This document shows, one piece after another, positions 41,617 to 57,826 of a stretch of DNA of 64,000 nt (within the stretch, counting starts at the first letter, position 1; each line of letters starts with the position of its first letter). The notes under the pieces are model-generated. The model saw nothing but the letters and a program-made list of their open reading frames with translations, made no database searches and was not told where the DNA came from. The position numbers and the translations under genes are program-made. The stretch covers positions 1,344,001 through 1,408,000 of the forward strand of contig OY760142.1 in NCBI GenBank assembly GCA_963663225.1. Direction: 5' to 3'. The stretch is from Nitrospirota bacterium. GTDB taxonomy: Bacteria; Nitrospirota; UBA9217.

Positions 41617-42726
41617 ATGTGCCGTTTAAGCGCAATTACAGCGAGCGACTACGTTTCTCCCATGGAAAGCATTATGGCGCTCGAAGCCATGAAGGAAGGG
41701 CACGACGGATCTGGGCTCGGCCTGATGCTTAAGGATTTGGGCGGCGCCTTCGAGGACTGCAAGGGATATCCCATCCTTTCCGCCATCTGCTCAGACAAGG
41801 GCTTACGCAACCTGAACGAGTACACGAAGGTGCACGGCTTCAGGGACATCTTTTCATGGTCTCCATCCATTAAAAACATTCCCGGCATTGAGCGGCGGGG
41901 ACACTACGTCGTCAAAGTGTATGACTACCCGGCCGCATACAAGGAAAAAACGCAGCGCGAGAAGGAAGACATGCTTTTGCAAACGAGGCTCGAACTCAGA
42001 AGCATGGGCGCGTCTGACGGATCGCTTTTTGTCTTTTCCTTCTATCCGGATGTGCTTACCCTCAAGGAAGTGGGTGACCCGCTCCAGGTTGCCGAATTCT
42101 TCAGCCTTGAAAAGTCAGGTTTGGAATCGCGAATTGTCCTGGCCCAGGGCCGGCAGAACACCAACTATGCGATCGACCTCTATGCCTGTCATCCGTTTTT
42201 TATCCAGGGCTACGCCTCCATGACAAACGGCGAGAATACGGCGTTTGTGCCGATTCGCGAGTTTCTCCTGGGCCGCGGCAACACTGGATACATGGGGTAC
42301 AATTCCGATTCAGAGGTGTTGACCCATATCCTGCACTATACGAACAGAACGCTCGGCTACCCGCTTCATTACTACAAGGATGTGATTACGCCGCTGAAAG
42401 ACACCGAGATCACACAGCGCTCCGATGCGGCGGCGCTCCGGCTCATCAAAAAATCGCTTCGGCCGCTCTGCATCGACGGGCCGAACTGCGTCATCGGATT
42501 CACCCCTGATGGCACGGTTTTTATGGTGCAGGATTCAAAAAAACTCAGGCCCGGAGCGGTAGGCTGCAAGCCGGGCAAGTATGCACTCATGTCCGAGGTC
42601 TGCGGCGTCGACAGCGTCATGCCCGACCGGGATAAATCAAATGACATTTTCCCCATGAAATACGACATGGTGATCATCGCGCCTGGTGCGCGGGAGGTTG
42701 CAGTATGGAATCAGCTCCACGGCTAG
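41617..42726 (+). CDS. Split glutamate synthase, class-II glutamine amidotransferase subunit
   Basis: N-terminal MCRL nucleophile, GRQNTN, HPFF, NGE, SDSEV, KLRP. Confidence 0.88.
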   Translation: MCRLSAITASDYVSPMESIMALEAMKEGHDGSGLGLMLKDLGGAFEDCKGYPILSAICSDKGLRNLNEYTKVHGFRDIFSWSPSIKNIPGIERRGHYVVKVYDYPAAYKEKTQREKEDMLLQTRLELRSMGASDGSLFVFSFYPDVLTLKEVGDPLQVAEFFSLEKSGLESRIVLAQGRQNTNYAIDLYACHPFFIQGYASMTNGENTAFVPIREFLLGRGNTGYMGYNSDSEVLTHILHYTNRTLGYPLHYYKDVITPLKDTEITQRSDAAALRLIKKSLRPLCIDGPNCVIGFTPDGTVFMVQDSKKLRPGAVGCKPGKYALMSEVCGVDSVMPDRDKSNDIFPMKYDMVIIAPGAREVAVWNQLHG

Positions 42727-44360
42727 ATCAAAACCATCAGCTCTCACTCAAGGAGCTTCCTTATATTGTCCGGTGGCGGGAGGACCGTTGCACCCGCTGC
42801 GGCCGGTGCACGGCCGTGTGCCCCATGAAATCCATTGAAGCCACTGTTTACACGCAGCGGGTGGTGTCTTCGGCAGGCGCAAGTCCCGATCCTACGGTAA
42901 CGCGCCGGCTGACCCACGTCGTCCGCCAGGTTACGGATATCGAACGCTACTGTATCGGCTGCGGCAGCTGCTCCCTTGTCTGCCCGACAGAAGCCATCTT
43001 TCCGGATTACAATTTCCAGCATAAACTGTATCACTATAAGAACAAAGGCGGGATTCCTTTTATGCGCGGCGGCCGGCGAAACGACCCGTCAAAGTCGACG
43101 CTCGACAAACTGAAATTTACGCGCATTTCAATGCTGACCGACCCTGCCTTGGACGCAGGAAGGCACGAATTCCGCATCAGAACGCTGCTGGGGAGAAACC
43201 TTCCCGCAGAGCAGCTTCCGCTTCACGTCGAAGGAGACAAACTCGTCTTTGCCGGATCCACCTTTATTCCCCCGGTCCGGGAAATATATCCGATTCGCAT
43301 CGGCAGCATGTCCATCGGCGCACTCTCACCGACCATGTGGGAAGGCCTCGCCATGGGCATTGCCTATCTCAATGAAGTTGAGGGAATGCCGGTTGTTATG
43401 TGCACCGGCGAGGGCGGATTGCCGCCGAGCATTCTGAAATCAAGGTACCTCAAGTATTTCATCCTGCAGATCGCCTCGGGCTATTTTGGCTGGGACGAAA
43501 TCATCCGGTCGCTTCCGGACATGATCGAAGACCCCTGCGCCATCGAGATCAAGTACGGGCAGGGAGCGAAGCCCGGCGACGGCGGACTGCTGCAGGCTTA
43601 TAAAGTTCTCGGCCTGATTGCAAAAATCCGCGGCGTTCCACAGTTCGTCGATTTGGCTTCGCCTCCGACGCACCAAACGAAGTACTCCATTGAGGAGGCG
43701 GTCGCAAAGATGATCCAGTCCATGTCCATGGCATGGGGATTCCGCGTGCCGGTCTATCCGAAAATATCAGGAACCAAAACGGCCCGGGCGGTCCTGAATA
43801 ATCTTGCCCGCAATCCGTATGCGGCGGCGCTTTGCATTGACGGTGAGGACGGCGGCACCGGCGCGGCATACAATGTTTCGATGGATAAAATGGGACATCC
43901 CATCGCTTCAAACATCCGCGACTGTTATCTGGATCTGGTAAAATCCGGAAAGCAGAACGAGCTCCCGCTTATTGCGGCAGGCGGCGTGGCCAAACGCGGG
44001 CACCTTGCGGCGAACGCAGCCGCACTTATCATGCTCGGTGCATCCGCCGTTGATGTCGGCAAGTACATCATGCAGGCGGTTGCCGACTGCTTTGGTGATG
44101 AATACAATCGCTGCAATGTCTGCAACCTCGGCAGGTGTCCGCGAGGCATCACCACGCAGGACCCGAAGCTCTATCGCAGGCTCGACCCGGACAAGGTGGC
44201 CGAGCGTGTTGTAGAGGTGTTCAAGGCGGCGGACGTTGAACTGAAAAAGATTTTTGCGCCGCTCGGCAGAAGTACGGAACTTCCCATCGGCATGTCCGAT
44301 GCTCTCGGCGTGAATGACAAGGAAATCGCCGACAGACTGCAAATTTCGTATGTGTGCTAG
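42705..44360 (+). CDS. Split glutamate synthase, FMN-binding subunit with N-terminal ferredoxin
   Basis: Two CxxCxxCxxxCP motifs, MSIGALS, TGEGG, QIASGYFG, EIKYGQGAKPGDGG, GGTGAA, C..C..G.CP.GITTQDP. Confidence 0.92.
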   Translation: MESAPRLDQNHQLSLKELPYIVRWREDRCTRCGRCTAVCPMKSIEATVYTQRVVSSAGASPDPTVTRRLTHVVRQVTDIERYCIGCGSCSLVCPTEAIFPDYNFQHKLYHYKNKGGIPFMRGGRRNDPSKSTLDKLKFTRISMLTDPALDAGRHEFRIRTLLGRNLPAEQLPLHVEGDKLVFAGSTFIPPVREIYPIRIGSMSIGALSPTMWEGLAMGIAYLNEVEGMPVVMCTGEGGLPPSILKSRYLKYFILQIASGYFGWDEIIRSLPDMIEDPCAIEIKYGQGAKPGDGGLLQAYKVLGLIAKIRGVPQFVDLASPPTHQTKYSIEEAVAKMIQSMSMAWGFRVPVYPKISGTKTARAVLNNLARNPYAAALCIDGEDGGTGAAYNVSMDKMGHPIASNIRDCYLDLVKSGKQNELPLIAAGGVAKRGHLAANAAALIMLGASAVDVGKYIMQAVADCFGDEYNRCNVCNLGRCPRGITTQDPKLYRRLDPDKVAERVVEVFKAADVELKKIFAPLGRSTELPIGMSDALGVNDKEIADRLQISYVC

Positions 44361-44390
44361 CAGCCACATAGCTATGTTAAGGTAGAACGC

Positions 44391-46718
44391 ATGATTATTC
44401 AGGGCACGATTAACGGAAAACGGGTAGCAACAAAAGACCTCGAAGAAAAAATTCAGAATGCCGTCAAGACGGGCGCTACCGAACTTACGGTCATTGCCGA
44501 CGGGCAGCACGGCATCGGCGGCCGCATTTGGCCCCGGGGATACAAAGTTTCGGTGACGATCGAAGGCACTGCAGGCCAGCGCGTCGGCAGCATGGGCATG
44601 GACGGAACGGAAATTCTGGTGCAGGGAAGCACGTCCGACGATACCGGCTGGCTCAACTGCGGTTCGACGATCACCGTGCTGGGTGATGTGGCGAACGGTG
44701 CGCACAACGCGGGCGCCCAGGGAATTCTGTACGTACAGGGCGGCGGCGGGGCCCGCTGCGATACCATGACCAAAAAGAACCCCCGGTTCCCGGATCTCCA
44801 GTCATGGTATTTTCGCGGCGTGGGAGACTCTTTTGCCGAGTTCAAGGCAGGCGGCATTGCCGTTGTCTGCGGCGTGGAACCCCGGGACCCGGAAAACATC
44901 CTCGGCTACCGCCCCTGTGTCGGCATGGTCGGTGGGACGATTTATTTTCGCGGTCCGGTCAAGGAATACAGCAAGGCAGACGTAAAGCTTGAAGAACTCA
45001 CTCCACAGGACTGGGAATGGCTCACGACGCACATGAAGCCCTATCTTCAGGCCATTGACCGCATGTCCTTCTACGAAGAGCTGACCAAAGACAGAAGCGA
45101 TTGGAAAAAGTTTATCGCATTCACGGCCGCTGAACGAGCCAGAAACAAGGGCAAGCTCAAAATGAGTTTGGCCGATTTTCGTCAGAATGTGTGGGAGGCG
45201 GAAACGGGCAAAGGCGGCATGTTCAGCGCGTATTTTACGCAAGACCGCTCTACGCTCCCGTATATTACGACAGGTGAGGACCGGCGGTGGAAGCCGGTTT
45301 GGAAAAACGACAAGTATCTCCCTCCGTGCGCCTATTCCTGTCCGTCACGCATTCCTTCTCACAAACGCGCGCAGCTGATCAGACAGGGAAGAACGGCCGA
45401 CGCTCTCGCCCTGGTGCTTCAGTACAGCCCTCTGCCGGCAACCGTGTGCGGGACCGTCTGCCCGAATCTTTGCATGACTGATTGTACGCGGGCACGGGTC
45501 GATGCACCTCTGAACATCCGGGAATACGGGGCGGCGGCATTGAACCTGAAGGCCCCGAAAAAAGAAAAAGCAACAGGACACACCATCGCTGTTATCGGCG
45601 GAGGCCCCGGCGGTCTTTCTGCTGCCTGGCAACTAGGACTCAAGGGCCATACGGTCGATCTGTACGAGGCCTCGGACAAGATCGGCGGCAAGCTTGAGAT
45701 GTGCATCCCGCGCGAGCGCCTTCCGCAGCGTATTTTGAACAAAGAGCTTTCACGGTTCGGAGAGATCGGCGTACAAGTGCATGTAAAGTCTCCGGTGACC
45801 AGAAAGCTGTTTGACAAAGTATATAAAGACCATGAAATAGTTGTTATTGCCGTGGGCGCTCATCAGGCCCGCATCATTCCCTTTCCCGGCTACGAAGACG
45901 TGGTTGCCGGCATTGAATACCTGAAGGAAGTGAATTTCGGCAAACCCCGGAATCTGAAAGGCAAGAAGGTGGTTGTGATCGGCGCGGGAAACGCGGGCAT
46001 GGACATTGCCTGCCAGGCCTGGAACCACGGCGCTGCGATGGTGACCTGCGTTGACATTCAAAAACCCGCGTCCTTCGGCGTCGAGCAGGCTATGGCGAAG
46101 AGCAAGGGAACGCAGATTGTGTACCCGAAAGCCACCCAGAAATATGATGCAAAAGCAAAGAAAATATATTTCCAGGACGGCAGCTCTCTGGATGCCGACC
46201 TGGTCGTCATCTCCATTGGAGAAAAACCGATAATCGATTTTCTGCCGCCGGGAATCCATACAGATGAACGCGGTTACATCGTCGTCAACGATCTGAACCA
46301 GACTTCCGATGTCAAGGTCTTTGCCATCGGCGACGTGACCAGGCCGGGCCTGATAACAAACTCCATTGGACAGGGCAAGGTGGCGGCCGACGTGATCAAT
46401 GCCCAGCTCATGAACTACGATTACGTGGCTGAAGAACGGCGGGCGATTCCGGTGGAGAAAGTCAAGACCCAGTACTACGAGGTCTGCCGTCTGCTCGAAA
46501 AGTTCTCGCCCAAGAAAGAAGCGGACCGCTGCATGAGCTGCGGTTCCTGCCGTGACTGCGGCATGTGCGTTGAGACGTGTTACTACGGCGCCATATCGCG
46601 CAAAACGCTTCCCAATAAATCGTTCGAATATGTCGTGGACGAGTCCAAATGCATCGGCTGCGGCTTCTGCGCAGGCATTTGTCCCTGCGGAGTGTGGGAC
46701 ATGATGGAAAACGTGTAA
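44391..46718 (+). CDS. Split glutamate synthase: GXGXG domain fused to GltD-like FAD/NAD(P) oxidoreductase and C-terminal ferredoxin
   Basis: GXGXG repeats, CVGMVGG, PC...CP, CG.VCP..C, IGGGPGG, IGAGNAGMD, two C-terminal CxxCxxCxxxC motifs. Confidence 0.9.
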   Translation: MIIQGTINGKRVATKDLEEKIQNAVKTGATELTVIADGQHGIGGRIWPRGYKVSVTIEGTAGQRVGSMGMDGTEILVQGSTSDDTGWLNCGSTITVLGDVANGAHNAGAQGILYVQGGGGARCDTMTKKNPRFPDLQSWYFRGVGDSFAEFKAGGIAVVCGVEPRDPENILGYRPCVGMVGGTIYFRGPVKEYSKADVKLEELTPQDWEWLTTHMKPYLQAIDRMSFYEELTKDRSDWKKFIAFTAAERARNKGKLKMSLADFRQNVWEAETGKGGMFSAYFTQDRSTLPYITTGEDRRWKPVWKNDKYLPPCAYSCPSRIPSHKRAQLIRQGRTADALALVLQYSPLPATVCGTVCPNLCMTDCTRARVDAPLNIREYGAAALNLKAPKKEKATGHTIAVIGGGPGGLSAAWQLGLKGHTVDLYEASDKIGGKLEMCIPRERLPQRILNKELSRFGEIGVQVHVKSPVTRKLFDKVYKDHEIVVIAVGAHQARIIPFPGYEDVVAGIEYLKEVNFGKPRNLKGKKVVVIGAGNAGMDIACQAWNHGAAMVTCVDIQKPASFGVEQAMAKSKGTQIVYPKATQKYDAKAKKIYFQDGSSLDADLVVISIGEKPIIDFLPPGIHTDERGYIVVNDLNQTSDVKVFAIGDVTRPGLITNSIGQGKVAADVINAQLMNYDYVAEERRAIPVEKVKTQYYEVCRLLEKFSPKKEADRCMSCGSCRDCGMCVETCYYGAISRKTLPNKSFEYVVDESKCIGCGFCAGICPCGVWDMMENV

Positions 46719-46749
46719 ACACTTCGCCGGCTCCGGTCCATACAAAATG

Positions 46750-46785
46750 AAAGCCCTTCGCGGTATAATCCCGAAGGGCTTTTTT
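46750..46785 (+). terminator. Intrinsic terminator between the glt operon and the convergent kinase
   Basis: AAAGCCCTTCG-loop-CGAAGGGCTTTTTT. Confidence 0.8.
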
Positions 46786-46816
46786 GCTGCCCGTATGATA
46801 GGGGAGCATCCTGATG

Positions 46817-48996
46817 TTAGGGTGAGAACCGCCCGGACGCGGATGATTGTGAAGGATTGTGTGAACAGGAGTCGAGTATCTGCCGTATCTGCACCAGGAG
46901 ATCGCGGGATTCAAACGGTTTTTGAAGGAACCAGGCGACAGTATTGATGTCTTCTTTCTCCGCGACATATTTCATGTAGCCTGATATGGCCAGCATGCGT
47001 ACCTCGGGGTTAATCGCCCGCAAGCGGTGCATGAGCTCTTTCCCGTCGAGCCTCGGCATTACCATGTCCGTAATCACCAACGCCACCTCGTCCGACATTC
47101 TGTTGAACACTTCCAGACCGAGGATGGGGTCGTTGGCCGTCAGGACCTTATATCCATTTGAGGTGAGCGTCTCCTGAATTGCACTCAGGATGTCTTCTTC
47201 GTCGTCGATAACCAGGATGGTTTCCGTTCCTCTCTGCGGCACCAGCAACGGCCGTGATCCGGGTGCGGGGGCTTCGCGAAGAACAGGAAGGAGGACTTTG
47301 AATGTGGCGCCGCTGCCGACGCGGCTTTGCACCACGATATACCCTTTATGCTCCAGTACGGCGCCATAGCACATGGCAAGACCCAGCCCCGTTCCTTTTC
47401 CTCGTTCTTTGGTGGTAAAGAATGGTTCAAATATTTTTTGCACCAGGTGCTCCGGAATGCCGACTCCTGAATCCGTCACACTCATCTGAACATAGTCTCC
47501 CGGCAGGACATAGGGCGGGACATCAGGGGTATTTCCGGGGACCTGCAAAACAGCAGTTGTGAGAACGATTCTGCCTCCCTGGGGCATCGCATCCCGTGCA
47601 TTCACCACGAGATTCATAACGACCTGTTCGAGCTGGTTGAAGTCGCCTTTGACAAGAGGAAGATTTTCCGACAAGGCCAGTTCGAGAGATATGTTTTTAT
47701 CGAGAACCCGTTCCACCAGTTTGGCGGAGTCAGTTATGATGTCATTGATATTGATGGGGAGAATTTCATAATTGCTCCGACGGGCAAATCCCAAGAGCTT
47801 ATTTATCATAGCTCCTGCTTTGCGCGATACATCTTCAATGACCTGGAGGCTCCGGAGAGATTTTGCGTCCAGAGAAGGGAAAAGCCGGACAATTTCCGTA
47901 TGGCCGAGAATTGCGGTCAGAATATTGTTGAAATCATGCGCGATGCCTCCTGCAAGCACGCCGATGGATTCCATCTTCTGAGATTGAAGGAGATGAGACT
48001 GTAGTTTCCTCTTTTCCGTGAGGTCCCGATAAAAAGACTGAATCAGCAAGGTGTCTCCGATTGCCACTGCTTTTGAGCTGATTTCAAGCGGCAGAGCAGT
48101 TCCGTCTTTTTTTATCTGCACGGTTTCAAAGTTAAGCGATTCTCCGGCAAGCAGGCGGGCCATTCTTTCCTGGACGACAGAAGGCGTATTTTCGGCCAAG
48201 AGACGCCACACCGAGGTCCCTATCAATTCTTCCCTGGTGTACCCGTGCATTTCGCAGATTCTATTGTTGACATTAACGATTAAGCCGTGTTTGTCGATAA
48301 CAGAGATTCCGTCGGTTGCATTTTCAAACAGCGCCCGGAGCTGCTGCTCGGAGTTTTGGAGCTCCTGAGTCCGTTCCTGGACCATATTTTCAAGCTGATG
48401 AGAATAGGTTTCAAGCTGTTTTTTTTGCTGTTCGATGTCATATTGGAGAGAGAGCTCCCGGACATATCGCAAATGCATAATGTAGCGTAAATATATCAGT
48501 GCGAGAGAACAGTAGAGAATGAAAAAATTTGCGTTGATAAAAAAAGGCCAGTCTGTAATCGTGTCATACATCAGGATGGGGACCAGATATAAGGAGTAAA
48601 CAATAACGAGAATGAAAATACTTACATTGAGGCCGAGCGGAATAAGTCCAATGCAGAAAATCGCCGATAATATCATGCCCGCAAAGTAGGGGGAACGGTG
48701 GCCGCCAAAGTGGAAGATCATGACACTCACCATGCCCGAAACAATGACTGCTGCGAGAATGGTCAGAAAATGGTGCCGGTTCCTGCTGGCTTCTTTTCTG
48801 TTGAAAAGAAACAGTATGAAAATCAGTGTCCCGCAATAATTCTGTAAAACAGAAAACGGGCAAAGTTTTCCGGAGTTACAAAATAGTCAAGTATGCATAA
48901 ACTGAGTATGACGAGAGAGCCTAATGCTATGGCGTAATTGGACCAGTAATGGAGCAGTTTGACAATGTTGCTGCTGATATATTCGTCTTTGGTCAT
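46817..48996 (-). CDS. Multi-TM hybrid sensor histidine kinase (TM-PAS-HisKA-HATPase-REC) with a frameshift near 48830
   Basis: H-box LAGGIAHDFNN, N-box NLVVNARDAM, EPFFTTK..GKGTGLGL, REC ITDMVMP. An upstream frame from ATG 48996 (MTKDEYISS...LDYFVTPENFARFLFYRIIAG) joins the listed ORF with a 1-nt shift. Confidence 0.88.
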
Positions 48997-49051
48997 ACAG
49001 CATTATATTAGCATACGGTCCCGGCATGCGCAAATTAATTTATGATGGCAG

Positions 49052-50473
49052 CTAGAGCAGGCGCTCCTTCCGTAAAATTCTCCGTGCCGTATCATGGCCC
49101 CCGTAGCAGGTTCCCGGCATGCCGAATGCGATGCTTGTCCAGTGGCCGGTCAGGTACATACCGCGGATATCCGTCGTTCTGTTGAAAACCGGATCGTAGG
49201 TCTGCGAAGGCGTTTTGTCCCATCCGAAAGAAGCCCCGTGATGGTTCAGGGTATATCGGTGCAACGTGTGAGGAGTTGCGGCATCAACATAAGCAATATG
49301 ATTTTTAAGCGGTGGCAAAAAAGCAATTACACGGTCTAAAAAATCATCGGCGATTTGTTTTTTATTCTGTTTCCAGAATTCCGCGGACTGAAAGGGAGCG
49401 CCCACAAAAACGAGAATTGTTTTCTGATCGGGCGCCACACGCAGCATAAACATGCCCGACTCCCTGAAATTGCAGTGTTGCGTCTGTATGAACATTTCAT
49501 CCAAATCATAATGAGGGAGATGCCAGGTATTTGTTCCTGGTGCCGGAAGCTCCGGAAATCCGCTTTTCAGTCCGACATATAAAATGACATTGGACGGCGA
49601 AGGCGTTAAGTGTTCCAACGAAGGGACGAGGTCCTGGCGGCCGTGAGCTTCACGGAGCAGGTTGTTGAATGTCGCGGTGATGTCCACGGCGGACACAACA
49701 TATTTTGCGTTTCGGATGGTATCATCGTCCAGGACAATGCCGGCGGCTGTTTTGTTTTTCACGAGGATTTTTTTTACCAATCTGTTATACGCAAGCGTTC
49801 CGCCGTGCTGCTGAATGATTTCAGCCAGCGCATCAGGCAGATTTTGCATCCCTCCCCTGGGATAATAGCCGCCGTCCAGAACGAATTCACTCAAAATTTT
49901 TGTGGCGCTGAAGGCGTGCATCCGGGAAGGCGGGAGTCCGCCGTTTCCGAAGACCGGCGCGGCAAGGATGCTCTTCAGTTTTTCATCGGAGAAAAAAGCG
50001 TCCAAAAGCTCCCGAAACGTTTTATCCTTCAGTTTTGTAAATTCCGACTGGCGGGATGAGGTAAGAAAATCATAAAACTTACTGAAATTACTTTTTTCAG
50101 AGGGGAAGGATTGATCAACACTGTCCTGCGTTTTCCGTGCATCGCCCCAGAAGGTAACGGTATGGTCGGGCGAGACAATGATATCGGACGGGTCATGTCT
50201 GTCAATGGTGATTTTTCTGTCCACGCCCAGTTCCGTGAAGATTTTGCGCACGTGTCCGCCCTCTCTGTAATTCCCGAATGAATGCGCTGCGGAGTCGAAC
50301 AGAAATCCCCGGCGTTTGAACGACGTGAAATATCCCCCCGGCTTGTTGTGCTGCTCCACGAGAAGGATTTTCAAACCTGCCTTTGCAAGATAGCAACCGC
50401 AGACGAGACCGCTTATGCCCGCGCCGATCACAATGACGTCATATGCGTCGTTCTCCCGATCAAGCGTTGACAT
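49052..50473 (-). CDS. Phytoene-desaturase (CrtI)/retinol-saturase-like FAD oxidoreductase
   Basis: VIVIGAGISGL, EQHNKPGG..SF.R.GF.FD, YPRGG, ATP.T..RYT.N..G..FG, YLTGHW...GMP. Confidence 0.88.
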   Translation of the reverse strand: MSTLDRENDAYDVIVIGAGISGLVCGCYLAKAGLKILLVEQHNKPGGYFTSFKRRGFLFDSAAHSFGNYREGGHVRKIFTELGVDRKITIDRHDPSDIIVSPDHTVTFWGDARKTQDSVDQSFPSEKSNFSKFYDFLTSSRQSEFTKLKDKTFRELLDAFFSDEKLKSILAAPVFGNGGLPPSRMHAFSATKILSEFVLDGGYYPRGGMQNLPDALAEIIQQHGGTLAYNRLVKKILVKNKTAAGIVLDDDTIRNAKYVVSAVDITATFNNLLREAHGRQDLVPSLEHLTPSPSNVILYVGLKSGFPELPAPGTNTWHLPHYDLDEMFIQTQHCNFRESGMFMLRVAPDQKTILVFVGAPFQSAEFWKQNKKQIADDFLDRVIAFLPPLKNHIAYVDAATPHTLHRYTLNHHGASFGWDKTPSQTYDPVFNRTTDIRGMYLTGHWTSIAFGMPGTCYGGHDTARRILRKERLL

Positions 50474-50723
50474 TTGCCAATCCCTGTTTTTGCATTTTTT
50501 TCACCACAGCTATCGCGTCCTGCACCGTAGTGATTGCCGGAACGTCCTCGTCCCGAACCGATATCCCGAATTTCTTCTCTATTGCAACGGTTATCTCGAT
50601 TGTCTTAATGGAATCAACCTCCAGATCCTGCATGATTTTTGTATTCGGTGTGATTTCCTCCACGTCAAATCCGGAAACATCCGATATTATTGCTATGACT
50701 TCTTTCTCAACATTTGTGTCCAT
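50460..50723 (-). CDS. Acyl carrier protein
   Basis: DLEVDSI phosphopantetheine Ser motif, IEKKFGI.V.DED; AAGGAG SD. Confidence 0.93.
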   Translation of the reverse strand: MDTNVEKEVIAIISDVSGFDVEEITPNTKIMQDLEVDSIKTIEITVAIEKKFGISVRDEDVPAITTVQDAIAVVKKMQKQGLANVNA

Positions 50724-50733
50724 GGCTTTCTCC

Positions 50734-51951
50734 TTATATGATGAATTTTTTTATGACCAGCGAGGCGTTATTGCCGCCGAATGCATAGGAATTATTGAGC
50801 GCGATAGTGACGGGCTGCCGTCTTGCATGGTTCGGTACGCAGTCAATATCGCACTCCGGGTCCGGTGTCTCATAGTTCATGGTGGGCGGTATGGTGTCAT
50901 GTTTTACCGTGAGGGCGCAGGCAACCGCTTCAAGGGCCGAGGCAGCGCCCATGGTATGGCCAAGCATTGATTTTATGGAACTAATGGGTATGTTTTTAGA
51001 CCGCGCTCCGAATACTTTCTTGATGGCGGCGCATTCTGCGCGGTCATTTGCAGGCGTTCCGGTGCCGTGGGCGCTGATATAATCAACCGTATCCGGAGTT
51101 ATACAAGCCTCCTGGATGGCTTTTCTCATACACGCGGCAATTCCGTCCACTGCAGCAAGCGTCATATGACTCGCGTCGCAGCTCAAACCATAGCCGAGAA
51201 TTTCCGCATAAATCGGTGCCTTTCTTCTGAGCGCACGTTCGAGGACTTCCAGCACGAGCACCGCAGCCCCTTCGCCGGGGATCATCCCTTTTCTGTTTTT
51301 ATCAAAAGGCCGGCACTGTTCCGGCGCCACGGCCGAAAACTGGTTGAAGCCGGTGTACTCGATGCGGGAAATGCCGTCGGATGCTCCTGCCAGAACGATA
51401 TCGGCTTTCTGCAATTTCAACAGATCATATCCGTATGCAATTGCGTAGTTGCCGGCCGAACATGCGGTTGAGGTCATGAAAAGCGGTCCTGTGCACTGGA
51501 AGCGCTTCGCGATTTCGGCAGGAGCTGTGTGTGGCGGCATTTGAGATAATATGCCCGGGGAGACCGGGCGGCCCTGAATAAGACAGTCATCGACGTCCTC
51601 GATAGCTTGTGCGGCACCTAATGTCGTTCCATGAGAAACAGCAACGACGGCCTGCTTCAAATCATCAGGAGAGAGCGCGGCATCCATCACCGCAAGGTCA
51701 GCCGAAGCCACTGCCATCTGTGTGGCCCTGTTCATCCGACGCACACAGTTGGCATACAGGAACTGATCAGGATTAAAGATTTTTACTTCGCCGCCGTTAT
51801 GAGTGAAATGTTTCGATGTATCAAAAGCCGTCACCGGACTGATACCGGACTTTCCCTGGAGCAGGGCTTCCCAGAACGCATCCTTGCCGATGCCGATGGA
51901 CGATATGGCTCCCAGTCCTGTAATCACAACCCGCTTATTCGTATTTAGCAC
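50734..51951 (-). CDS. Beta-ketoacyl-ACP synthase (active, FabF-like)
   Basis: Full Cys-His-His triad: STACSAG, AHGTGT, KSMLGHTMGAA. Confidence 0.93.
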   Translation of the reverse strand: MLNTNKRVVITGLGAISSIGIGKDAFWEALLQGKSGISPVTAFDTSKHFTHNGGEVKIFNPDQFLYANCVRRMNRATQMAVASADLAVMDAALSPDDLKQAVVAVSHGTTLGAAQAIEDVDDCLIQGRPVSPGILSQMPPHTAPAEIAKRFQCTGPLFMTSTACSAGNYAIAYGYDLLKLQKADIVLAGASDGISRIEYTGFNQFSAVAPEQCRPFDKNRKGMIPGEGAAVLVLEVLERALRRKAPIYAEILGYGLSCDASHMTLAAVDGIAACMRKAIQEACITPDTVDYISAHGTGTPANDRAECAAIKKVFGARSKNIPISSIKSMLGHTMGAASALEAVACALTVKHDTIPPTMNYETPDPECDIDCVPNHARRQPVTIALNNSYAFGGNNASLVIKKFII

Positions 51952-52375
51952 TGAATATCATCTCCGCTTCTGTAATTTTTTTGCCTTCCACGAAAGCTTC
52001 GCCGGATACACAGGCTCCGGTCGGCAGCGTTTTGATGTTCTGAACGCGTATCGTTATCTGATCACCGGGGACCGCAGGATGCAAAAACCGCGCTTTGGCT
52101 GAGCCGAAAAAATACAGCGGTTTTTTGCTTTCGTCCGGACGATTCGCATGCAGCGCGAAAAGAACAATGGCGGTCTGGGCCATGGCTTCCAGGATAAGCG
52201 CCCCCGGCATGACGGCTTTTTCCGGAAAATGACCCTGCATAAACGCTTCGTTCCCGGACACGTTTTTAATTGCGACCGCGTGTTTTCCCGGCTCCGCTTC
52301 CAACACCCGGTCGATCATAATAAATGGATACCGCTGGGGAATCAGTTTTTTTATTTTTTCAAAGTCAATACGCAT
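51935..52375 (-). CDS. 3-hydroxyacyl-ACP dehydratase, FabZ-like
   Basis: RYPFIMIDRV, GHFP...MPGALILEAMAQ. Confidence 0.93.
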   Translation of the reverse strand: MRIDFEKIKKLIPQRYPFIMIDRVLEAEPGKHAVAIKNVSGNEAFMQGHFPEKAVMPGALILEAMAQTAIVLFALHANRPDESKKPLYFFGSAKARFLHPAVPGDQITIRVQNIKTLPTGACVSGEAFVEGKKITEAEMIFSAKYE

Positions 52376-52378
52376 TCG

Positions 52379-53614
52379 TCACCTTGCATAGCGGCTTACG
52401 ATAACCGCAGAGTTCTGGCCGTACGGGTCCACGGCCGTAACGAGCACATTCCGGAGTTCCTTCTTGCGCGCCGTGTTCGGAACAATATCCAGATCGCACA
52501 AGATGTCTTTTTCAATATAATTGATTGTGGGAGGTATGCAGTTTTTTTGGACCGCTCCGACAGCCGCGGCCAGAGACAAGGCGCCCGAAGCCGAGCAGGA
52601 TTCTCCTATCATGGATTTTATGGAGGTTACCGGAACTGCAACAGCCTGGTTTCTGAAGATGTTTATTATGGTTGCAGCTTCCATCCGATCAAGACCGTGC
52701 GTGGAGTTCGCGCAGGCGCAGATGTAGTCAATATCGCAGGGCTGCAACGCCGCATTCTTTAAAGCCAGGGCGATTGCGGTCTGAAGTCCCTGTCCCGCGT
52801 GCGTGAAATCGCCGTTTGCCGAGGGGTCGAAAGCAGCGGCGTATCCCGTAATACGCGCAAGTGGTGTCGTGCCTTTTTGCAGGGCGTACTGCTCCTCTTC
52901 CAGCACGAGAATTGCCGCTCCTTCAGAAAGGATTGCGCCGTTTCTGCGTGCGTCAAAAGGGCAGCAAAGAGGTTGTGAACCGTTTGTGCCAGAAAGCATG
53001 CCGAGATTGAGAAGGCCGAGAAATGTTTCCTCGCACAGTTCCTCCACTCCGCCCGCCAGCACCGTGGCGGCCCTGCCCAGTTTTATAAAGTCCGCCGCGT
53101 ACGCAATCGCGTCCATGCTCGCGCAGAATCCTGTTGATATTGTCGTATTGAAGCCTTTTATTTTGAATCGGATCGACACCTGGCTGGCCGGCGAGTTTAT
53201 AACAGTATTCGGAAAATGCGACGGATTAACGGCACGCGGACCCTCGCGAAGGCCTGTCCGGTCGAATTGAGAGATGCTGTGCAGGCTCCCGTACGTTGTG
53301 CCGATTGCCACGCCCATTGCGCTTGTTGTGTTTTCAGTGATTTCGAGTTTGCCGTCGTCAATGGCCAGTTTTGCAGCGGCACAAATGAGACGGGTGCTCC
53401 TGTCGAGGTCGCGGAGCCCTTTTTTCCCGAGAAAGGAAACGGGATCGAAGTTCGGCGTCTCGCCGGCCATGCTGACGCCGAACGCACTGGTGTCGAACAG
53501 GGTTATCGGAGCAAAGCCCGAGTTGCCCAGGAAAAGGTTTTCCCAGAACAGCTCTTTTCCTATTGCGACAGGAGAGAGAATCCCGATGCCGGTTATTACG
53601 ATATTATTGCCCAT
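52379..53614 (-). CDS. Ketosynthase homolog lacking the catalytic triad (chain-length-factor-like)
   Basis: STGFCAS instead of TACS, CACANST instead of AHGTGT, KSMIGE instead of KS..GH. Confidence 0.85.
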   Translation of the reverse strand: MGNNIVITGIGILSPVAIGKELFWENLFLGNSGFAPITLFDTSAFGVSMAGETPNFDPVSFLGKKGLRDLDRSTRLICAAAKLAIDDGKLEITENTTSAMGVAIGTTYGSLHSISQFDRTGLREGPRAVNPSHFPNTVINSPASQVSIRFKIKGFNTTISTGFCASMDAIAYAADFIKLGRAATVLAGGVEELCEETFLGLLNLGMLSGTNGSQPLCCPFDARRNGAILSEGAAILVLEEEQYALQKGTTPLARITGYAAAFDPSANGDFTHAGQGLQTAIALALKNAALQPCDIDYICACANSTHGLDRMEAATIINIFRNQAVAVPVTSIKSMIGESCSASGALSLAAAVGAVQKNCIPPTINYIEKDILCDLDIVPNTARKKELRNVLVTAVDPYGQNSAVIVSRYAR

Positions 53615-53684
53615 GCTTTGTCACGTCCTATCAACAGGGTGACGCCCTGTTAAAATTTAGCAGCACTGTTTGCACAAACACATT

Positions 53685-54437
53685 TTATATTCCCAATCCG
53701 CCGTCAAGCTGCAAGGTCTGACCGGTGATGTACTGCGCCCTGTCACTGAGCAGAAATACCACCGATTCTGCAACCTCTTCAGCAGTGCCGAACCTCTGAA
53801 GAGGGATGTTTCTTAAAAAAAGCTCCTTCATTTTCGGGGCAAGGGTTGCGGTCATTTCCGTGTCGATAAAGCCGGGCGCCACAGCGTTCACTCTGACATT
53901 ATACGGTGCGACTTCCTGCGCCAAAGACTTGGTAAAACCGATCAGTCCTGCCTTTGCGGCCGCGTAGTTTGTCTGACCAGGGAGCGGATGGATGCCGCCT
54001 ACCGAGGAAATGTTCACGATGGCCCCGCTTTTTTGCTTCAAGAACGTGATGATCGAGGCGCGGGTAATGTTAAAGGCGCCGTTCAGATTGGTATCAATGA
54101 CATCATGCCAGTCTTCCGGGCTCATCATCATCAGAGACTTGTCCCTGGTGATTCCGGCATTGTTCACTAGGAAATCGAGCTTTCCGAATTCTTTTCTGAC
54201 GGATTCGGCAAGCGTCTTGGCGCCATTGAAGTCCCTTGCATCAAGCAGAACGGAAAGGACCTTTCTGCCCATACCGCGGACCTCCCGCGCAAGCGATTCC
54301 GCCGCCGCATGGTTTTTTACATACGTGAAAGCGCAATCCACGCCCCGCGCGGAAAGGGCAAGGACGACAGCGCGTCCAATGCCTCTTGTTCCGCCGGTTA
54401 CGATCGCAGTTTTCTTGAGAAAGAAATTCTTGAGCAA
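53685..54437 (-). CDS. 3-oxoacyl-ACP reductase, FabG-like
   Basis: TGGTRGIG, NNAGITRD, YAAAK, VNAVAPGFIDT. Confidence 0.93.
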   Translation of the reverse strand: MLKNFFLKKTAIVTGGTRGIGRAVVLALSARGVDCAFTYVKNHAAAESLAREVRGMGRKVLSVLLDARDFNGAKTLAESVRKEFGKLDFLVNNAGITRDKSLMMMSPEDWHDVIDTNLNGAFNITRASIITFLKQKSGAIVNISSVGGIHPLPGQTNYAAAKAGLIGFTKSLAQEVAPYNVRVNAVAPGFIDTEMTATLAPKMKELFLRNIPLQRFGTAEEVAESVVFLLSDRAQYITGQTLQLDGGLGI

Positions 54438-54551
54438 GTTTTCACTCTTGAATCACTGCTTACAGGACCTGATGAAATCCCTGTGGTCCGGATATTTATT
54501 CAAACGCACCTGTCCGATCGACTATTGTCGTGAGCTTGAATATATCCGGCA

Positions 54552-55661
54552 TCAGGTATTTTCAGAACCAGGCGCTATCGCAATGTAAAAAATAATGGAG
54601 CCGGATTCGACCCTGGTCATTGACAGCGCGGTGTCGGGTATTTCCGCAAGCCGGAACAGTCTGGCAAAGTCGGGCTCGATACGCTGTTTGAAGCCGTCCC
54701 AGTCCACAAACCAGTGGTAGATTTGGGAGCGATAACGGGCAGCATCCTTGTACGCCATGATAAGCTTCCCGTCGGGCCGCAGAAGCCGGTAGAGCGTGTT
54801 CAGGAGTTTGATAAGAAAATCGTCGGGCAGGTAATCGAAATACCCAACGCTGTAGATAATATCCTGTGGTCCGAATTCTTTTTGAGCTGTTTCAAGATCA
54901 AACATTCTGAGCGCATTATAGGTGAGCAGTTCAACCTGATCCGACAGCAGTCCTGCCGTTGAAAAACGGTCGCGGGAGAAATTGAGGGCCTCCGCATCCA
55001 GATCGACGCAGGTAAACCGGGCGCCAGAGGCCTTGATCTCGGGAGCCAATTCGAAGACTTCCCTGCACGATCCGCAGGCGACATCGAGGACTTTCGGCGA
55101 TATTCTCGCTTTCAACTCATCCCGGAGCAGCTCTCTCAGCCTTTGTATGCGCTCTCTCACACCCACGCCGAGTGCCGAGTCGAGCAGATATTTGTCCAGG
55201 TAATATCCGATGCCGTCAGACAACGGCATGTTTTTGTACGCGAGTTCGAGCGTTTCAAAATCGCCCTGCTGCCCCCGTGGCCAGACGCGGCAACGGTTGA
55301 TGCAATAACTTTTGGAAAGAATGGGGTTGGTTTTTTCGCGGAAGGTGGCTTGTGCGGCCCTGATCGCCTCTGGATCTAGTATCTGCCGTTCGAACTGAGC
55401 GCATGCTTCAAGCATTGCGTCATTTAGCACGGTGATTTCAGCAAGAAGTTCGAAACGGTCGGCATCAGGTTGGTTGCATTTTGATTCGAAAAATCTAAGT
55501 TGCTGCAGATAGTCTGCAACTTTTGAATCAAGCAAATCTGCATATGGTTTTGTTTTTTCGCGAAGAAGCTGCGATGTCGCAGCAAGCTCCCCAGATTGAT
55601 ATGTCAGTGCGTTCTGCACGTTATCCCCCTTGAACGGTATGTTTACGGGTTTATCAGGCAT
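54552..55661 (-). CDS. Class-I SAM-dependent methyltransferase, PhcB-like
   Basis: VLDVACG SAM motif, CVDLD..AL, YSVGYFDYL, LRPDG.L; upstream WPRGQQGDFETLE resembles the KPxGYxGD motif I associate with PhcB-like enzymes. Confidence 0.75.
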   Translation of the reverse strand: MPDKPVNIPFKGDNVQNALTYQSGELAATSQLLREKTKPYADLLDSKVADYLQQLRFFESKCNQPDADRFELLAEITVLNDAMLEACAQFERQILDPEAIRAAQATFREKTNPILSKSYCINRCRVWPRGQQGDFETLELAYKNMPLSDGIGYYLDKYLLDSALGVGVRERIQRLRELLRDELKARISPKVLDVACGSCREVFELAPEIKASGARFTCVDLDAEALNFSRDRFSTAGLLSDQVELLTYNALRMFDLETAQKEFGPQDIIYSVGYFDYLPDDFLIKLLNTLYRLLRPDGKLIMAYKDAARYRSQIYHWFVDWDGFKQRIEPDFARLFRLAEIPDTALSMTRVESGSIIFYIAIAPGSENT

Positions 55662-55680
55662 CCTGCCTTATTACAAACAA

Positions 55681-55709
55681 TCTTTGCGGCTTTTCGCTGA
55701 GGCCGCAGA
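55681..55709 (-). terminator. Stem-loop directly after the small peptide ORF
   Basis: Minus strand TCTGCGGCCTCAGCGAAAAGCCGCAAAGA (TGCGGC/GCCGCA stem); no long U-tract, so likely a stabiliser or leaky terminator. Confidence 0.5.
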
Positions 55710-55716
55710 TGGAAGG

Positions 55717-55815
55717 TTAGCGCGGGCCCCTGGGTGAGGGACGGATAGCGTTCTGCAAACAGCAGCAGGCAAGCTGCTTCTTCCGCTCAGCCGGCAATAC
55801 GAAGTTGCCTATCAT
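55717..55815 (-). CDS. 32-aa peptide MIGNFVLPAERKKQLACCCLQNAIRPSPRGPR (first gene of the KS/methyltransferase operon)
   Basis: Perfect extended SD TAAGGAGGTGATC ending 2 nt before the ATG; sigma70 promoter about 95 nt upstream; hairpin downstream. Confidence 0.75.
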   Translation of the reverse strand: MIGNFVLPAERKKQLACCCLQNAIRPSPRGPR

Positions 55816-55910
55816 TTGATCACCTCCTTATCCTCGAAGTCATCGTGTAGGACCGAATCTCTTTCGTTGCAAAATCTCTTGCGCAAAAAAAAGAGTGCGT
55901 GGTGGGCGGA

Positions 55911-55939
55911 AGGTTAAACCAGCGGTGCAATCGTGTCAA
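55911..55939 (-). promoter_or_regulatory. sigma70 promoter of the peptide-methyltransferase-KS operon
   Basis: Minus strand TTGACA-N17-TAACCT. Confidence 0.65.
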
Positions 55940-56209
55940 ATAAATTAAAAAAAGATGGTCAAACAAAAAATGGGCTGTGTGCATAAATAAAAAAAATTGT
56001 CGTATTATTCGAGACAAACAGAAGCGAGCATCGCAAAAAGTTGCACACCGTTTTTATTTTTTTATCAACTTTAAAAAGATGTCATGAAAAAAATCGCGAA
56101 ATGTCCATAAAGCGGATCGTGCTGCAGGGACATCCGCCGAAGAAAAAAGCTTGTTTGCGTTGTTTTGGGCGCGTTTTATATTTCCAACAAACGACTACAA
56201 AACATATTC

Positions 56210-56238
56210 TTGACTCACTTAAGCCTTTCAGATACACT
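56210..56238 (+). promoter_or_regulatory. sigma70-like promoter upstream of 56332
   Basis: TTGACT-N17-TACACT. Confidence 0.5.
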
Positions 56239-56331
56239 TGCGTATCTTTAAAATCGATGAAAACAGGGTGTATTCGCCCCTTTTCTGCTTTTTTTGCTCC
56301 AAGCAAAGCAGAAGTATACTAAGGAGAAAAT

Positions 56332-56676
56332 ATGGCCCAAATAAAAACAGGGACCAAAATCAAAGCCGTTCTGATTGGCATTCTCGTCTGCATTCTGATT
56401 GTCCTGTACAGTTACTTTGTTGCCGACACGGTGACGACGAGGATCACCGATGCGCAGATGACAAAGGTGGACGGCAGGTTCATGATAGCCACCGAGTACC
56501 GTCCTTTTGTAAATGAAGACGCCTGGTACCGGTTTAAGTTCGATTCCGGTAACATACAGAATGAGGCAATCCGGCTGAAGGGCAAAGAGGTCAGGATCAA
56601 GAAATACGGATGGCGGATAACGGTATTATCGCAGTATGAGAACGTGGTGAAGATCGAAGAGGTCCAGAAAAAGTAA
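56332..56676 (+). CDS. DUF1523-like membrane-anchored protein
   Basis: N-terminal TM; NEDAWYRFKFDSGNIQ...YGWRI..LS.Y.N. Confidence 0.7.
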   Translation: MAQIKTGTKIKAVLIGILVCILIVLYSYFVADTVTTRITDAQMTKVDGRFMIATEYRPFVNEDAWYRFKFDSGNIQNEAIRLKGKEVRIKKYGWRITVLSQYENVVKIEEVQKK

Positions 56677-56690
56677 AAAAGCCCGTAGGG

Positions 56691-56891
56691 CTACCTAGTT
56701 TTTCTGAGAAGCAGGAATGCTCCGAGGGCCGTGCAGACCCCGCCGGCAATAAGAACGATCATGGTCTTATCGGTCGGTGAACCGGTAACAAAACGCGCCA
56801 CGTGGGAAGAAAAAGCACTGTACAGATTATAACCCCAGATTAGAAGGCCGATGCCGGCAACGAGCAGTGCAACACCAATTAGCTTTTCCAT
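56691..56891 (-). CDS. DUF3185-like small membrane protein
   Basis: LIGVALLVAGIGLL.WG...RFVTGSPTDK; GGAGG SD. Confidence 0.8.
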   Translation of the reverse strand: MEKLIGVALLVAGIGLLIWGYNLYSAFSSHVARFVTGSPTDKTMIVLIAGGVCTALGAFLLLRKTR

Positions 56892-57046
56892 AAGCGTCAG
56901 TCCTCCATAACAGCCAATTGCCGCAGAGTGTAAATGCTTAGCCGGTAATTGTCAAACAAAATCAGATCGGCATACTGCCGTCATCCTTTGACTACAGACT
57001 GAGGCACCCGAAAACCAATCGCACGATCCGGAACAGGAGCAGACAC

Positions 57047-57826
57047 ATGGAGCAGGGAAAAAACGATGTTCAGAAACAAATGAGGGAACACTCGAAGCCG
57101 CTGGTGCTGATCGTCGACAGCAACATCATGAGCCAGTTTACGACCAGCATGATCCTGCAGCGGCTGGATTATTTCGTTTATCCGGTGAAGACGGCAGAAG
57201 AGGCGCTGACAGCCATAAGCATTACCTCTCCGCACGTCGTGCTTGCAGAGACCGCCCTTCCCCAGATGAGCGGACTTGCTCTTCTGCAGAGGATTAAAAA
57301 AGACAAAGGAACAAAAAACATTCCGGTTATTATCTACACAAAGGAGCAGGACCAGTCTACACGCCAGGTATACCTGCAGGCGGGATGCGAAGGATATCTG
57401 ACGTACCCGGCTGATCCCAACCACCTGTACGAAACTATCCAGCAGGCGACGGAAGTAACACCCCGCCATTTTGTCCGGCTCAACACCAGTCTGGAAGTAA
57501 CCATTGGCAAACAGGGCGCCGCGGACCCTGCAGCGGCAAGGGAACGGGTGAGCGCACTGTCCGTAGACGGCATGTACGTAAGCACGGTAAAGCCCGTGCC
57601 GTACGGCACAATACTTCCCTTCACCCTGTTTTTGGAGGATTCACCGAACGGAAGCATCGGTCTTGAAGGGAAGGTGCTCTACAGCTACAGCTATGACGGC
57701 AGGGTGGGCGCGGTAAAGCAGCCGGGTATGGGCATTAAATTTACCAACATCCTTCCCGAGGACCGGATGCTCATAAAGAACTTCATCCAGAAAAAACTGA
57801 TGGAAGGAATCGCTGTTGCCATCTGA
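57047..57826 (+). CDS. Atypical receiver domain plus PilZ-like domain protein
   Basis: REC fold (VLIVDS...VVLAETALPQMSG...IPVII); RHFVR PilZ motif; LS.DGMYV; PGMGIKF. Confidence 0.85.
   Translation: MEQGKNDVQKQMREHSKPLVLIVDSNIMSQFTTSMILQRLDYFVYPVKTAEEALTAISITSPHVVLAETALPQMSGLALLQRIKKDKGTKNIPVIIYTKEQDQSTRQVYLQAGCEGYLTYPADPNHLYETIQQATEVTPRHFVRLNTSLEVTIGKQGAADPAAARERVSALSVDGMYVSTVKPVPYGTILPFTLFLEDSPNGSIGLEGKVLYSYSYDGRVGAVKQPGMGIKFTNILPEDRMLIKNFIQKKLMEGIAVAI

Follow-up and report, generated by a model that had tools for sequence, protein, structure and literature searches.

A conserved Nitrospirota operon linking an anammox Cluster I-like acyl synthase to a methyltransferase and a hybrid sensor kinase: a candidate module for making and sensing a lipid-like molecule

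Introduction

This report concerns an operon on the minus strand of a 64,000-nucleotide stretch of DNA from a Nitrospirota bacterium (G000:C1:1344001-1408000; hereafter the window), whose genome is a single 3.26-Mb contig. In this operon a cassette for acyl-chain synthesis, built around two ketosynthase (KS) genes, stands between a methyltransferase (MT) gene and a gene for a hybrid sensor histidine kinase. Its parts call to mind several described systems. Staphylococcal agrBDC and Bacillus comQXP are pherotype, or specificity, loci with peptide signals, and in DesK/DesR a membrane thermosensor controls a fatty-acid desaturase.

There is precedent as well for the two ends of the operon and for its middle. 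In the phcBSRQ locus of Ralstonia and Cupriavidus, as the cited texts describe it, the MT PhcB makes 3-hydroxymyristic or 3-hydroxypalmitic acid methyl ester (3-OH-MAME/PAME) and the kinase PhcS senses it (PMC11960443; PMC6989110). Cluster I of the anammox bacterium Kuenenia (KustE3603-3608) encodes an acyl carrier protein (amxACP), amxFabZ, amxFabF2, amxFabFmut, a phytoene-dehydrogenase homologue and a B12 radical S-adenosylmethionine (SAM) enzyme, and these same sources call the cluster "encountered exclusively" in, or "unique to", ladderane producers (bioRxiv 10.64898/2026.05.19.726425; PMC10139942). According to the preprint, the hallmarks of amxFabFmut are the replacement of the catalytic Cys by Val and of His by Asn, Glu or Cys, together with the tunnel residues Phe135 and Val139, and the anammox heterodimer decarboxylates malonyl-ACP and prefers C6/C8 probes over C16 (bioRxiv 10.64898/2026.05.19.726425). 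A preference for C6/C8 is also described for amxFabZ, whose Ile69 is said to limit the tunnel to short chains (PMC10139942; bioRxiv 10.64898/2026.05.19.726425). The role of Cluster I in ladderane synthesis is itself described as unproven (PMC10139942), and synteny with Desulfotalea had already been noted by Rattray et al. 2009.

Here we describe the conservation of the Nitrospirota operon, the kinship of its cassette with anammox Cluster I and a pattern of joint variation between its last two genes. The scenario that we favor, tentatively and with slightly less than even confidence, is that the operon is a make-and-sense module for a lipid-like molecule. Our literature searches found nothing linking either this module or the anammox cluster to Nitrospirota.

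The operon and its conservation

Genes were called from an open reading frame (ORF) listing together with Pfam and NCBIfam scans. The operon (46817-55815) runs in the order small ORF, hairpin, MT, FabG, KSb, FabZ, KSa, ACP, flavoenzyme and kinase (Table 1), and every gene that the original prediction had listed in this run lies where it had been placed. The FabZ and KSa genes overlap by 17 nt and the ACP and flavoenzyme genes by 14 nt, as had been claimed. The Pfam scan of the operon likewise bears out the reported lack of thioesterase, acyltransferase, ligase, radical SAM and exporter domains, and it found no PlsX/Y/C-type gene that would pass the ACP product to glycerolipid. Housekeeping fatty acid synthesis (FAS) is encoded elsewhere in the genome (FabF, ACP and FabG at 2.572-2.575 Mb, FabZ at 2.348 Mb); the operon cassette is therefore an additional set.

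A scan of species-representative genomes returned 223 relatives, and the best 80 loci were analyzed by tblastn with the window proteins. All but two of these loci carry Nitrospirota-type titles, and one of the two exceptions (labelled 'Betaproteobacteria', L046) sits in the same order as the rest. From the names that homologues and related loci bear, the window belongs to Nitrospirota of Thermodesulfovibrionia type. At the level of genomes, MT matches occur in 43 of 63 genomes of one order and in 19 of 41 related genomes, which break down as 16 of 24 in the same family, both members of a second family and none of 15 in nine others. The gene arrangement is far beyond chance; its order recurs in 70 of the 80 loci, where the cassette begins behind the MT; in four of the remainder the kinase stands directly behind the MT and in six the contig ends within 540 nt of it. 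For 36 of the cassette loci at least 9 kb of downstream sequence is available, and in 33 of these the kinase follows on the same strand. With regard to the three misses, L071 shows the first kinase codons at its end, the sequence of L072 runs out and L066 has other genes. Within the same 36 long loci KSb and KSa are present in all, ACP in 34, FabZ in 32, the flavoenzyme in 30 and FabG in 21. Furthermore, among 16 loci from relatives' genomes there are eight MT-kinase pairs without any cassette, some of which also belong to the set of 80. Synteny of the MT, the KS pair and the kinase, on which the original prediction had staked its proposal, is thus found in 33 of 36 long loci, and the MT-kinase pair survives where the cassette is absent.

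The cassette varies in its details. A second class I MT occurs in six loci, either between FabZ and KSa or ahead of the kinase, and a B12-binding radical SAM enzyme in three, between ACP and the flavoenzyme. In many MAGs (L065, L070, L071, L072, L074, L077, L091 and L097) we also observed small intra-cassette inserts that, judged by sequence appearance, are toxin-antitoxin-like or mobile (PIN-like, nucleotidyltransferase/HEPN-like, DUF433-like or GIY-YIG-like).

An MT tree was built by a quick search from 76 rows (72 of the 80 loci, the window and three copies from relatives) and is unrooted; eight loci were left out on account of stops, X or a length under 280 aa. Seven cassette-less MTs form one group (SH-aLRT 98), nested within the cassette forms under midpoint rooting. 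We had considered an ancestral MT-kinase pair into which the cassette later moved, and this nesting leaves that idea unsupported. The cassette-less clade looks more like the outcome of one loss, and the unrooted tree equally allows an early split. One locus of the same genus as the window (L022, G001:C19, 14133-16356) has tandem MTs before the kinase with no KS cassette between; the first, of the cassette type, is disrupted by a stop or frameshift, and the second is of the cassette-less type.

Table 1. Features of the operon and of its upstream region, with positions in the window.
Feature	Position	Strand	Remarks
Conserved upstream block with TTGACA (55934-55939)	55893..55960	-	probable promoter/operator
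32-aa ORF MIGNFVLPAERKKQLACCCLQNAIRPSPRGPR	55717..55815	-	strong Shine-Dalgarno sequence; genus-limited leader or upstream ORF at best
Hairpin between small ORF and MT	55685..55708	-	consensus fold, 3 genus sequences
Class I SAM methyltransferase (MT)	54552..55661	-	Pfam Methyltransf_25/12/11/20
FabG-type 3-oxoacyl-ACP reductase	53685..54437	-	TIGR01830, 302.8 bits vs 297.75 cut-off
KSb, KS without triad, resembling a chain length factor (CLF), amxFabFmut type	52379..53614	-	ketoacyl-synt N and C domains
FabZ, 3-hydroxyacyl-ACP dehydratase, amxFabZ type	51935..52375	-	PDB matches
KSa, active KS, amxFabF2 type	50734..51951	-	Cys163/His295/His332
ACP, the cassette's own	50460..50723	-	PP-binding 1.3e-12; DS motif
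CrtI/CrtISO-family flavin adenine dinucleotide flavoenzyme	49052..50473	-	Amino_oxidase 9.4e-31; crtI_fam 144.9 bits, under 238 cut-off
Hybrid sensor histidine kinase	46817..48996	-	about 6 transmembrane helices (MASE8-like), PAS, HisKA, HATPase, REC; frameshifted
Kinase frames: N-terminal fragment; main frame	48823..48996; 46817..48886	-	

An acyl synthase of the anammox Cluster I kind

The original prediction had paired an active KS with a dead one. KSa has its triad intact, and KSb carries Phe/Cys/Glu at the positions of Cys/His/His, so the label of a dead KS is right for KSb as that of an active one is for KSa. What went unrecognised at that stage was the kinship of these proteins. The best PDB match of KSa is 9s5h_B (454.2 bits), followed by Iga11 (6kxd) at 332 and FabF at 316 bits; that of KSb is 9s5h_C (364.7 bits), with the next two at 245 and 226. 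Chain C of 9s5h has Val/Asn/Glu at the triad and a Phe and a Val within the motif DFPNTV. KSb keeps the Glu at the second His as well as both tunnel residues (HFPNTV aligned with DFPNTV; F135/V139 of amxFabFmut). From its chains and residues, 9s5h appears to be the amxFabF2/amxFabFmut heterodimer of bioRxiv 10.64898/2026.05.19.726425, the main text of which names no PDB codes; a further entry, 9s5i, has an ACP chain in addition.

FabZ points in the same direction. Its top five PDB matches are all amxFabZ entries (codes checked against PMC10139942), with a small margin in score (121 bits for amxFabZ vs 112 for E. coli FabZ). The window FabZ and all 42 cluster FabZs from other loci have Ile at the position of amxFabZ Ile69, where the housekeeping FabZ has Gly. 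The ACP scores 35.5-38.7 bits against amxACP chains in the PDB search, below AcpM at 54 bits. For the flavoenzyme, Planctomycetota clusters are among the near Atlas matches, which we treat as a lead only. The B12 radical SAM gene, absent from the window operon in the Pfam scan, is present in the related loci L035, L043 and L072; the best 120 homologues of this enzyme include no anammox-named protein, the names being those of Nitrospirota, Fibrobacterota, Chitinispirillia and others. No anammox-named entry is found among the eight PDB matches of the second MT of some loci either. As judged from matches and key residues of the KS pair and FabZ, we conclude that the Nitrospirota cassette is of the same kind as the anammox Cluster I synthase. 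The original prediction had itself named a known aryl-polyene or membrane-lipid pathway with no diffusible product as what would overturn it, and the outcome lies halfway: the cassette maps onto Cluster I, a presumed lipid pathway of unproven function.

This kinship brings in the main rival to a make-and-sense module, a specialised membrane-lipid pathway in which an unusual acyl chain would enter membrane lipids and be methylated, with the six-helix kinase sensing bilayer thickness, fluidity or proton leak and adjusting expression. We rate it as possible, if doubtful. The studied proteins that come nearest to KSa, KSb and FabZ are those of the presumed ladderane lipid cluster, the operon has no exporter or release enzyme, and some loci add the B12 radical SAM enzyme and a CMAS-like second MT, which are typical of lipid tailoring. 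However, no acyltransferase or PlsX/Y/C-type gene joins the ACP product to glycerolipids, and the anammox homologues favor C6-C8, which alone is too short for a bilayer lipid. The lipid assignment of the anammox cluster is, moreover, the very point that its describers leave unproven (PMC10139942).

The same matches also bear on a different kind of pathway, in which the operon would be a secondary-metabolite cluster. Its product, a polyene or other reduced polyketide from a highly reducing type II KS/CLF system, would serve as pigment, antioxidant or antibiotic, with the kinase as pathway regulator or simply a neighbor. A KS/CLF pair with ketoreductase (KR) and dehydratase (DH) and no enoyl reductase (ER) is the architecture of ishigamide and aryl-polyene synthases, Iga11 is the second-best PDB match of KSa, and tailoring genes vary between loci. 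Genes for an aryl starter, adenylation, glycosyl transfer and export are nevertheless absent, KSb keeps the short-chain tunnel residues, and the kinase not only accompanies the cassette in 33 of 36 long loci but also persists without it. We regard such a cluster as improbable, even with a further point in its favor from the MT, to which we now turn.

The methyltransferase

The MT is modeled as a helical N-terminal domain of about 170 residues followed by a Rossmann core (predicted local distance difference test, pLDDT, 82.8). Homologues at E <= 0.001 number 673 among the candidates scored, and 10 of 120 listed MT homologues in JGI carry the KEGG name for PhcB ('EF 3-hydroxypalmitic acid methyl ester biosynthesis protein'). 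An NCBIfam scan of the MT gave no match to a PhcB model, and tblastn of the MT against plasmids returned no Ralstonia or Cupriavidus record. Foldseek retrieved generic class I MTs (SgvM, 3ocj, Rv2258c, the CurJ C-MT and AprA MT2) at TM-scores of about 0.4-0.5, and searching the PDB with a profile of the MT alignment yielded weak matches only (3ocj, 1.4e-4).

Among plasmids the MT has its best match, at 30% identity, in an Enterobacter type I polyketide synthase (PKS), where the matching region is the C-terminal domain of the last PKS protein, and an MT-like domain also lies within a 2521-aa frame of a relative; both would suit a polyketide product. In the plasmid case (L107; Enterobacter ludwigii IncFII plasmid NZ_CP134637.1, 9652-12789) the domain ends the PKS at the position where a thioesterase would be expected, which hints that this MT family may be able to act at chain release.

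Another large MT clade has frames of about 426 aa; among 77 frames, counted after extension to the first start codon, 42 reach at least 400 aa. All nine of the longer MTs that were scanned have an N-terminal PilZ domain (E <= 0.01), in four of them above the Pfam cut-off. No PilZ domain was found by Pfam in the window MT. Such PilZ-fused forms, like the cassette-less pairs of MT and kinase, are more in keeping with regulation or signalling than with the bulk synthesis of lipid, and count against the membrane-lipid pathway. A gene for a REC-PilZ response regulator (57047-57826, plus strand) lies 1.4 kb upstream of the operon and is linked to it within the genus only (97% in G004); its product might be a split form of the PilZ-MT or a partner of the kinase.

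The domain matches raise one more scenario, in which the MT acts on protein, tuning the kinase by methylation, and the cassette is an unrelated insertion. CheR, which methylates and so tunes chemoreceptors, would be the model. Two of the nine PilZ-MTs give weak, sub-threshold matches to the CheR SAM domain, a CheR-annotated plasmid match of the MT has 27% identity, and, as described below, the MT and the cytoplasmic half of the kinase co-vary from opposite ends of the operon (r = 0.62). The CheR matches nevertheless fall under the Pfam cut-off, neither the operon nor its neighbor genes include a CheB-like demethylase, and the placement of the cassette between MT and kinase in 70 of 80 loci speaks for a small-molecule pathway common to both. 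We consider this scenario very improbable.

The kinase and its joint variation with the flavoenzyme

Relative to a 97%-identical relative with an intact gene, the window kinase has a 1-nt deletion at about 48829-48830 (GGGAACAC to GGGACAC). The frameshift is real in the sampled population because independently built Logan contigs of two runs of one sample (X1 and X3) carry the same deletion, with 47916-56400 covered at 0 gaps and 0 differences; these runs may represent the source sample of the genome. A restart at ATG 48733 would drop the first two and a half transmembrane helices. The sensing arm is probably defective in the window strain, broken or truncated, because its kinase is frameshifted.

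The intact orthologue (726 aa, L013:10487-12664) shows five hydropathy peaks, one of double length, consistent with about six transmembrane helices, followed by PAS, HisKA, HATPase and REC domains; by hydropathy its sensor is all-membrane with no periplasmic domain. On this orthologue MASE8 scores only E = 0.059, and precomputed Pfam lists MASE8 for most homologues. The membrane domain is single-copy in the genome and has 83 homologues at E <= 0.001 in a word-based search. An all-membrane sensor without a periplasmic domain would also suit sensing of the bilayer, which favors the membrane-lipid pathway. A second kinase gene follows the first in L033, L034, L036 and L045, with a related sensor (about 39% in L033) and a distant core (25-28%).

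Of the 80 loci, 17 yielded all six parts in order, and for these we compared pairwise distances by partial Mantel tests. Mean distance is highest for the sensor half of the kinase (0.57), followed by the flavoenzyme (0.49), and lowest for the KS genes (0.33). The sensor half tracks the flavoenzyme given the backbone (r = 0.46, p = 0.0006, the significance being overstated as the 17 loci are related; leave-one-out r 0.36-0.55), with little sign that it tracks its own cytoplasmic half (r = 0.09, p = 0.2). For the flavoenzyme against KSa, its other neighbor, r = 0.21 and p = 0.04, and for the MT against the cytoplasmic half of the kinase given the KS genes, r = 0.62 and p = 0.0002, these last two parts standing at opposite operon ends. 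In 16 of the 17 loci the flavoenzyme and sensor, taken together, also have a GC content below that of the other parts, the mean difference being 0.10.

A break appears to lie within the kinase gene, between sensor and core. Joint variation of sensor and flavoenzyme resembles the signal/receptor pattern of specificity loci such as agr and comQXP, and it fits the kinase being the cognate sensor of the product. A sensor of the bilayer has no evident cause to track a tailoring enzyme over its own core, and this is a further argument against the membrane-lipid pathway.

The upstream region

The block at 55893-55960 is identical at 64 of 69 and 61 of 68 positions to two genus relatives (61/68 for G002) and is probably the operon promoter/operator. 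The original prediction had put a promoter here: its TTGACA does lie in this conserved block, but it is a weak match to consensus with a poor -10 and is absent from the list of a consensus promoter scan. The hairpin fared better. It is kept in all three genus sequences (a small sample) at -18.4 kcal/mol with two compensatory pairs, in accordance with what had been claimed; it has no clear T-run and is not in the terminator scan list.

The small ORF had been cast as a cysteine-rich peptide to which the acyl chain might be joined as a lipopeptide signal. It is the first gene of the operon, with a strong Shine-Dalgarno sequence that is kept, like its start and stop, in the three closest genus genomes. 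Yet no equivalent upstream of the MT was seen in G001 or, across the 80 loci, beyond the genus; behind the well-kept promoter block its DNA is the least conserved segment (54 of 99 nt identical to G002); the CCC run is missing from the G002 version (MICDSVFSRVWNTLFPYCIRPPIRPSPHCR); and just 6 nt changes relative to G004 produce four residue differences. Ligase, condensation and protease/exporter genes are absent as well by Pfam. An acyl-peptide signal is hence already largely refuted by non-conservation, and we give it hardly any credence. The small ORF looks at best like a genus-specific leader or upstream ORF, outside the core of the module. A cysteine-sensing attenuator, considered for a CCC leader, was dropped in view of the G002 version without the Cys run, and no Rfam match at E <= 1, to a cyclic di-GMP (c-di-GMP) or any other riboswitch, was found over 46500-57000.

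The true start of the MT is very probably GTG 55619, because AAGGGGGA, conserved in four genus genomes, stands upstream of it and the homologues begin at this same codon.

Neighboring genes

Two large genes for glutamate-synthase-like iron-sulfur flavoproteins (42705-46718, plus strand) are convergent with the 3' end of the kinase gene and are kept beside it in G004. Divergent from the operon is a gene for a DUF1523 membrane protein (56332-56676, plus strand), also found beside the MT in G004 and G001 (69% identity). A second accessory cluster (G000:C1, about 2,982,000-3,004,100) shows by tblastn at least four KS-like genes, a FabG-like gene and a CrtI-like N-terminus, and may be an aryl-polyene-like or other lipid pathway.

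A model for making and sensing a lipid-like molecule

With regard to chain length, methyl ester, release and sensing, we infer the following from the parts, relatives, linkage and co-variation described above. The KS/CLF pair would prime itself by decarboxylation of malonyl-ACP and build a chain of about C6-C10, as reported for its anammox homologues. The chain would stay 3-hydroxy or unsaturated, because the operon has no enoyl reductase. The CrtI-family flavoenzyme, acting as desaturase, isomerase or saturase, would then set the double-bond pattern. The MT, fused in many lineages to what would be a c-di-GMP-type PilZ domain, would add a methyl group to the product, most likely as an ester in the manner of PhcB, making the product neutral and membrane-permeant. 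The kinase would bind this product within the membrane through its all-transmembrane sensor and feed a phosphorelay. Flavoenzyme and sensor half would diversify together, like signal and receptor in pherotype loci. Of the self-contained signalling module in the original prediction, what stands is the linkage, the idea of a cognate sensor fits the co-variation of sensor and flavoenzyme, and the peptide part falls away.

Several observations weigh against the idea that the operon makes and senses such a molecule: (i) the connection of the MT to PhcB is an automatic JGI/KEGG label, and its fold matches include C-methyltransferases (SgvM and CurJ; TM-score about 0.45-0.5), which cannot separate O- from C-methylation; (ii) the Pfam scan found no release step encoded in the operon, including a thioesterase, and no Hpt protein or DNA-binding response regulator; (iii) the closest studied relatives of the cassette have been assigned by their authors, in the texts cited, to a membrane lipid and not a signal (bioRxiv 10.64898/2026.05.19.726425; PMC10139942); (iv) the ACP is not specially close to amxACP; (v) the flavoenzyme is missing in 6 and FabG in 15 of the 36 long loci; and (vi) with regard to co-variation, the Mantel significance is inflated as stated above, adjacent DNA may recombine jointly without function, codons account for part of the low GC in a membrane domain, and in the window GC is low in the sensor segment only (0.419 vs 0.506) and not in the flavoenzyme.

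A bolder extension of the make-and-sense proposal, which we put forward as rather unlikely in its entirety, is that Cluster I is one branch of a wider group of short-chain acyl synthases that in Nitrospirota drives a new class of lipid autoinducer. A c-di-GMP-gated MT would release a methylated, short unsaturated acyl signal, and the flavoenzyme and the membrane half of the receptor would be swapped jointly as 'pherotypes'.

These results matter for the anammox field. The exclusivity of Cluster I, used in two papers as an argument for its ladderane role, is weakened because proteins closely related to its KS/CLF pair and FabZ occur widely among anaerobic Nitrospirota, where they are wired to an MT and a kinase. 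The Nitrospirota module offers a second and possibly more tractable system for learning the product of the synthase, and experimental material may exist, since four runs of one sample contain the whole stretch. If the signal proposal is true, the operon would represent the first proposal of lipid-type signalling between cells in Nitrospirota, and signal/receptor co-diversification would gain a non-peptide case.

Comparison with described systems

Iga11/Iga12 of ishigamide and ApeO/ApeC of aryl polyenes share with the operon a KS/CLF heterodimer with KR and DH and without ER. Iga11 scores well under the anammox pair, however, and the operon differs in having a short-chain tunnel and no aryl-starter, acyl- or glycosyl-transfer or export genes. 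DesK/DesR offers an all-transmembrane kinase sensor beside a lipid-desaturating function, but DesK is non-hybrid and without PAS, whereas here there is no DesR-like regulator and the sensor tracks the tailoring enzyme.

The likeness to phcBSRQ lies in an MT gene followed by a membrane sensor histidine kinase in one operon, the two being adjacent in the cassette-less clade, in the KEGG name of PhcB on some MT homologues and in a product that would be lipid-derived and methylated. In contrast to PhcS, the kinase here is hybrid, with PAS and its own fused receiver. No phcR- or phcQ-like genes follow downstream, where a convergent glutamate-synthase-like gene is found instead; the module has its own acyl synthase in place of general FAS, and many of the relatives are PilZ-fused MTs.

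With anammox Cluster I the operon shares an active KS and a triad-less partner KS, with the partner upstream and both nearest to 9s5h; the partner Glu at the second His, the F/V tunnel residues and the FabZ Ile69; its own ACP and a CrtI-family flavoenzyme; and, in three related loci, a B12 radical SAM enzyme. It differs in its host, a Nitrospirota and not an anammox planctomycete, in lacking a radical SAM gene in the window, in an ACP that is not specially amxACP-like, and in layout, with FabG inside the cluster, the order KSmut-FabZ-KS-ACP and a frame of MT and sensor kinase.

Relative to agrBDC and comQXP, the variable enzyme here is a flavoenzyme predicted to act on an acyl chain, and the co-variation comes from 17 related loci. 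As in those pherotype loci, a modifying enzyme and the membrane half of a kinase vary jointly, and the core of the kinase goes with the remainder of the locus.

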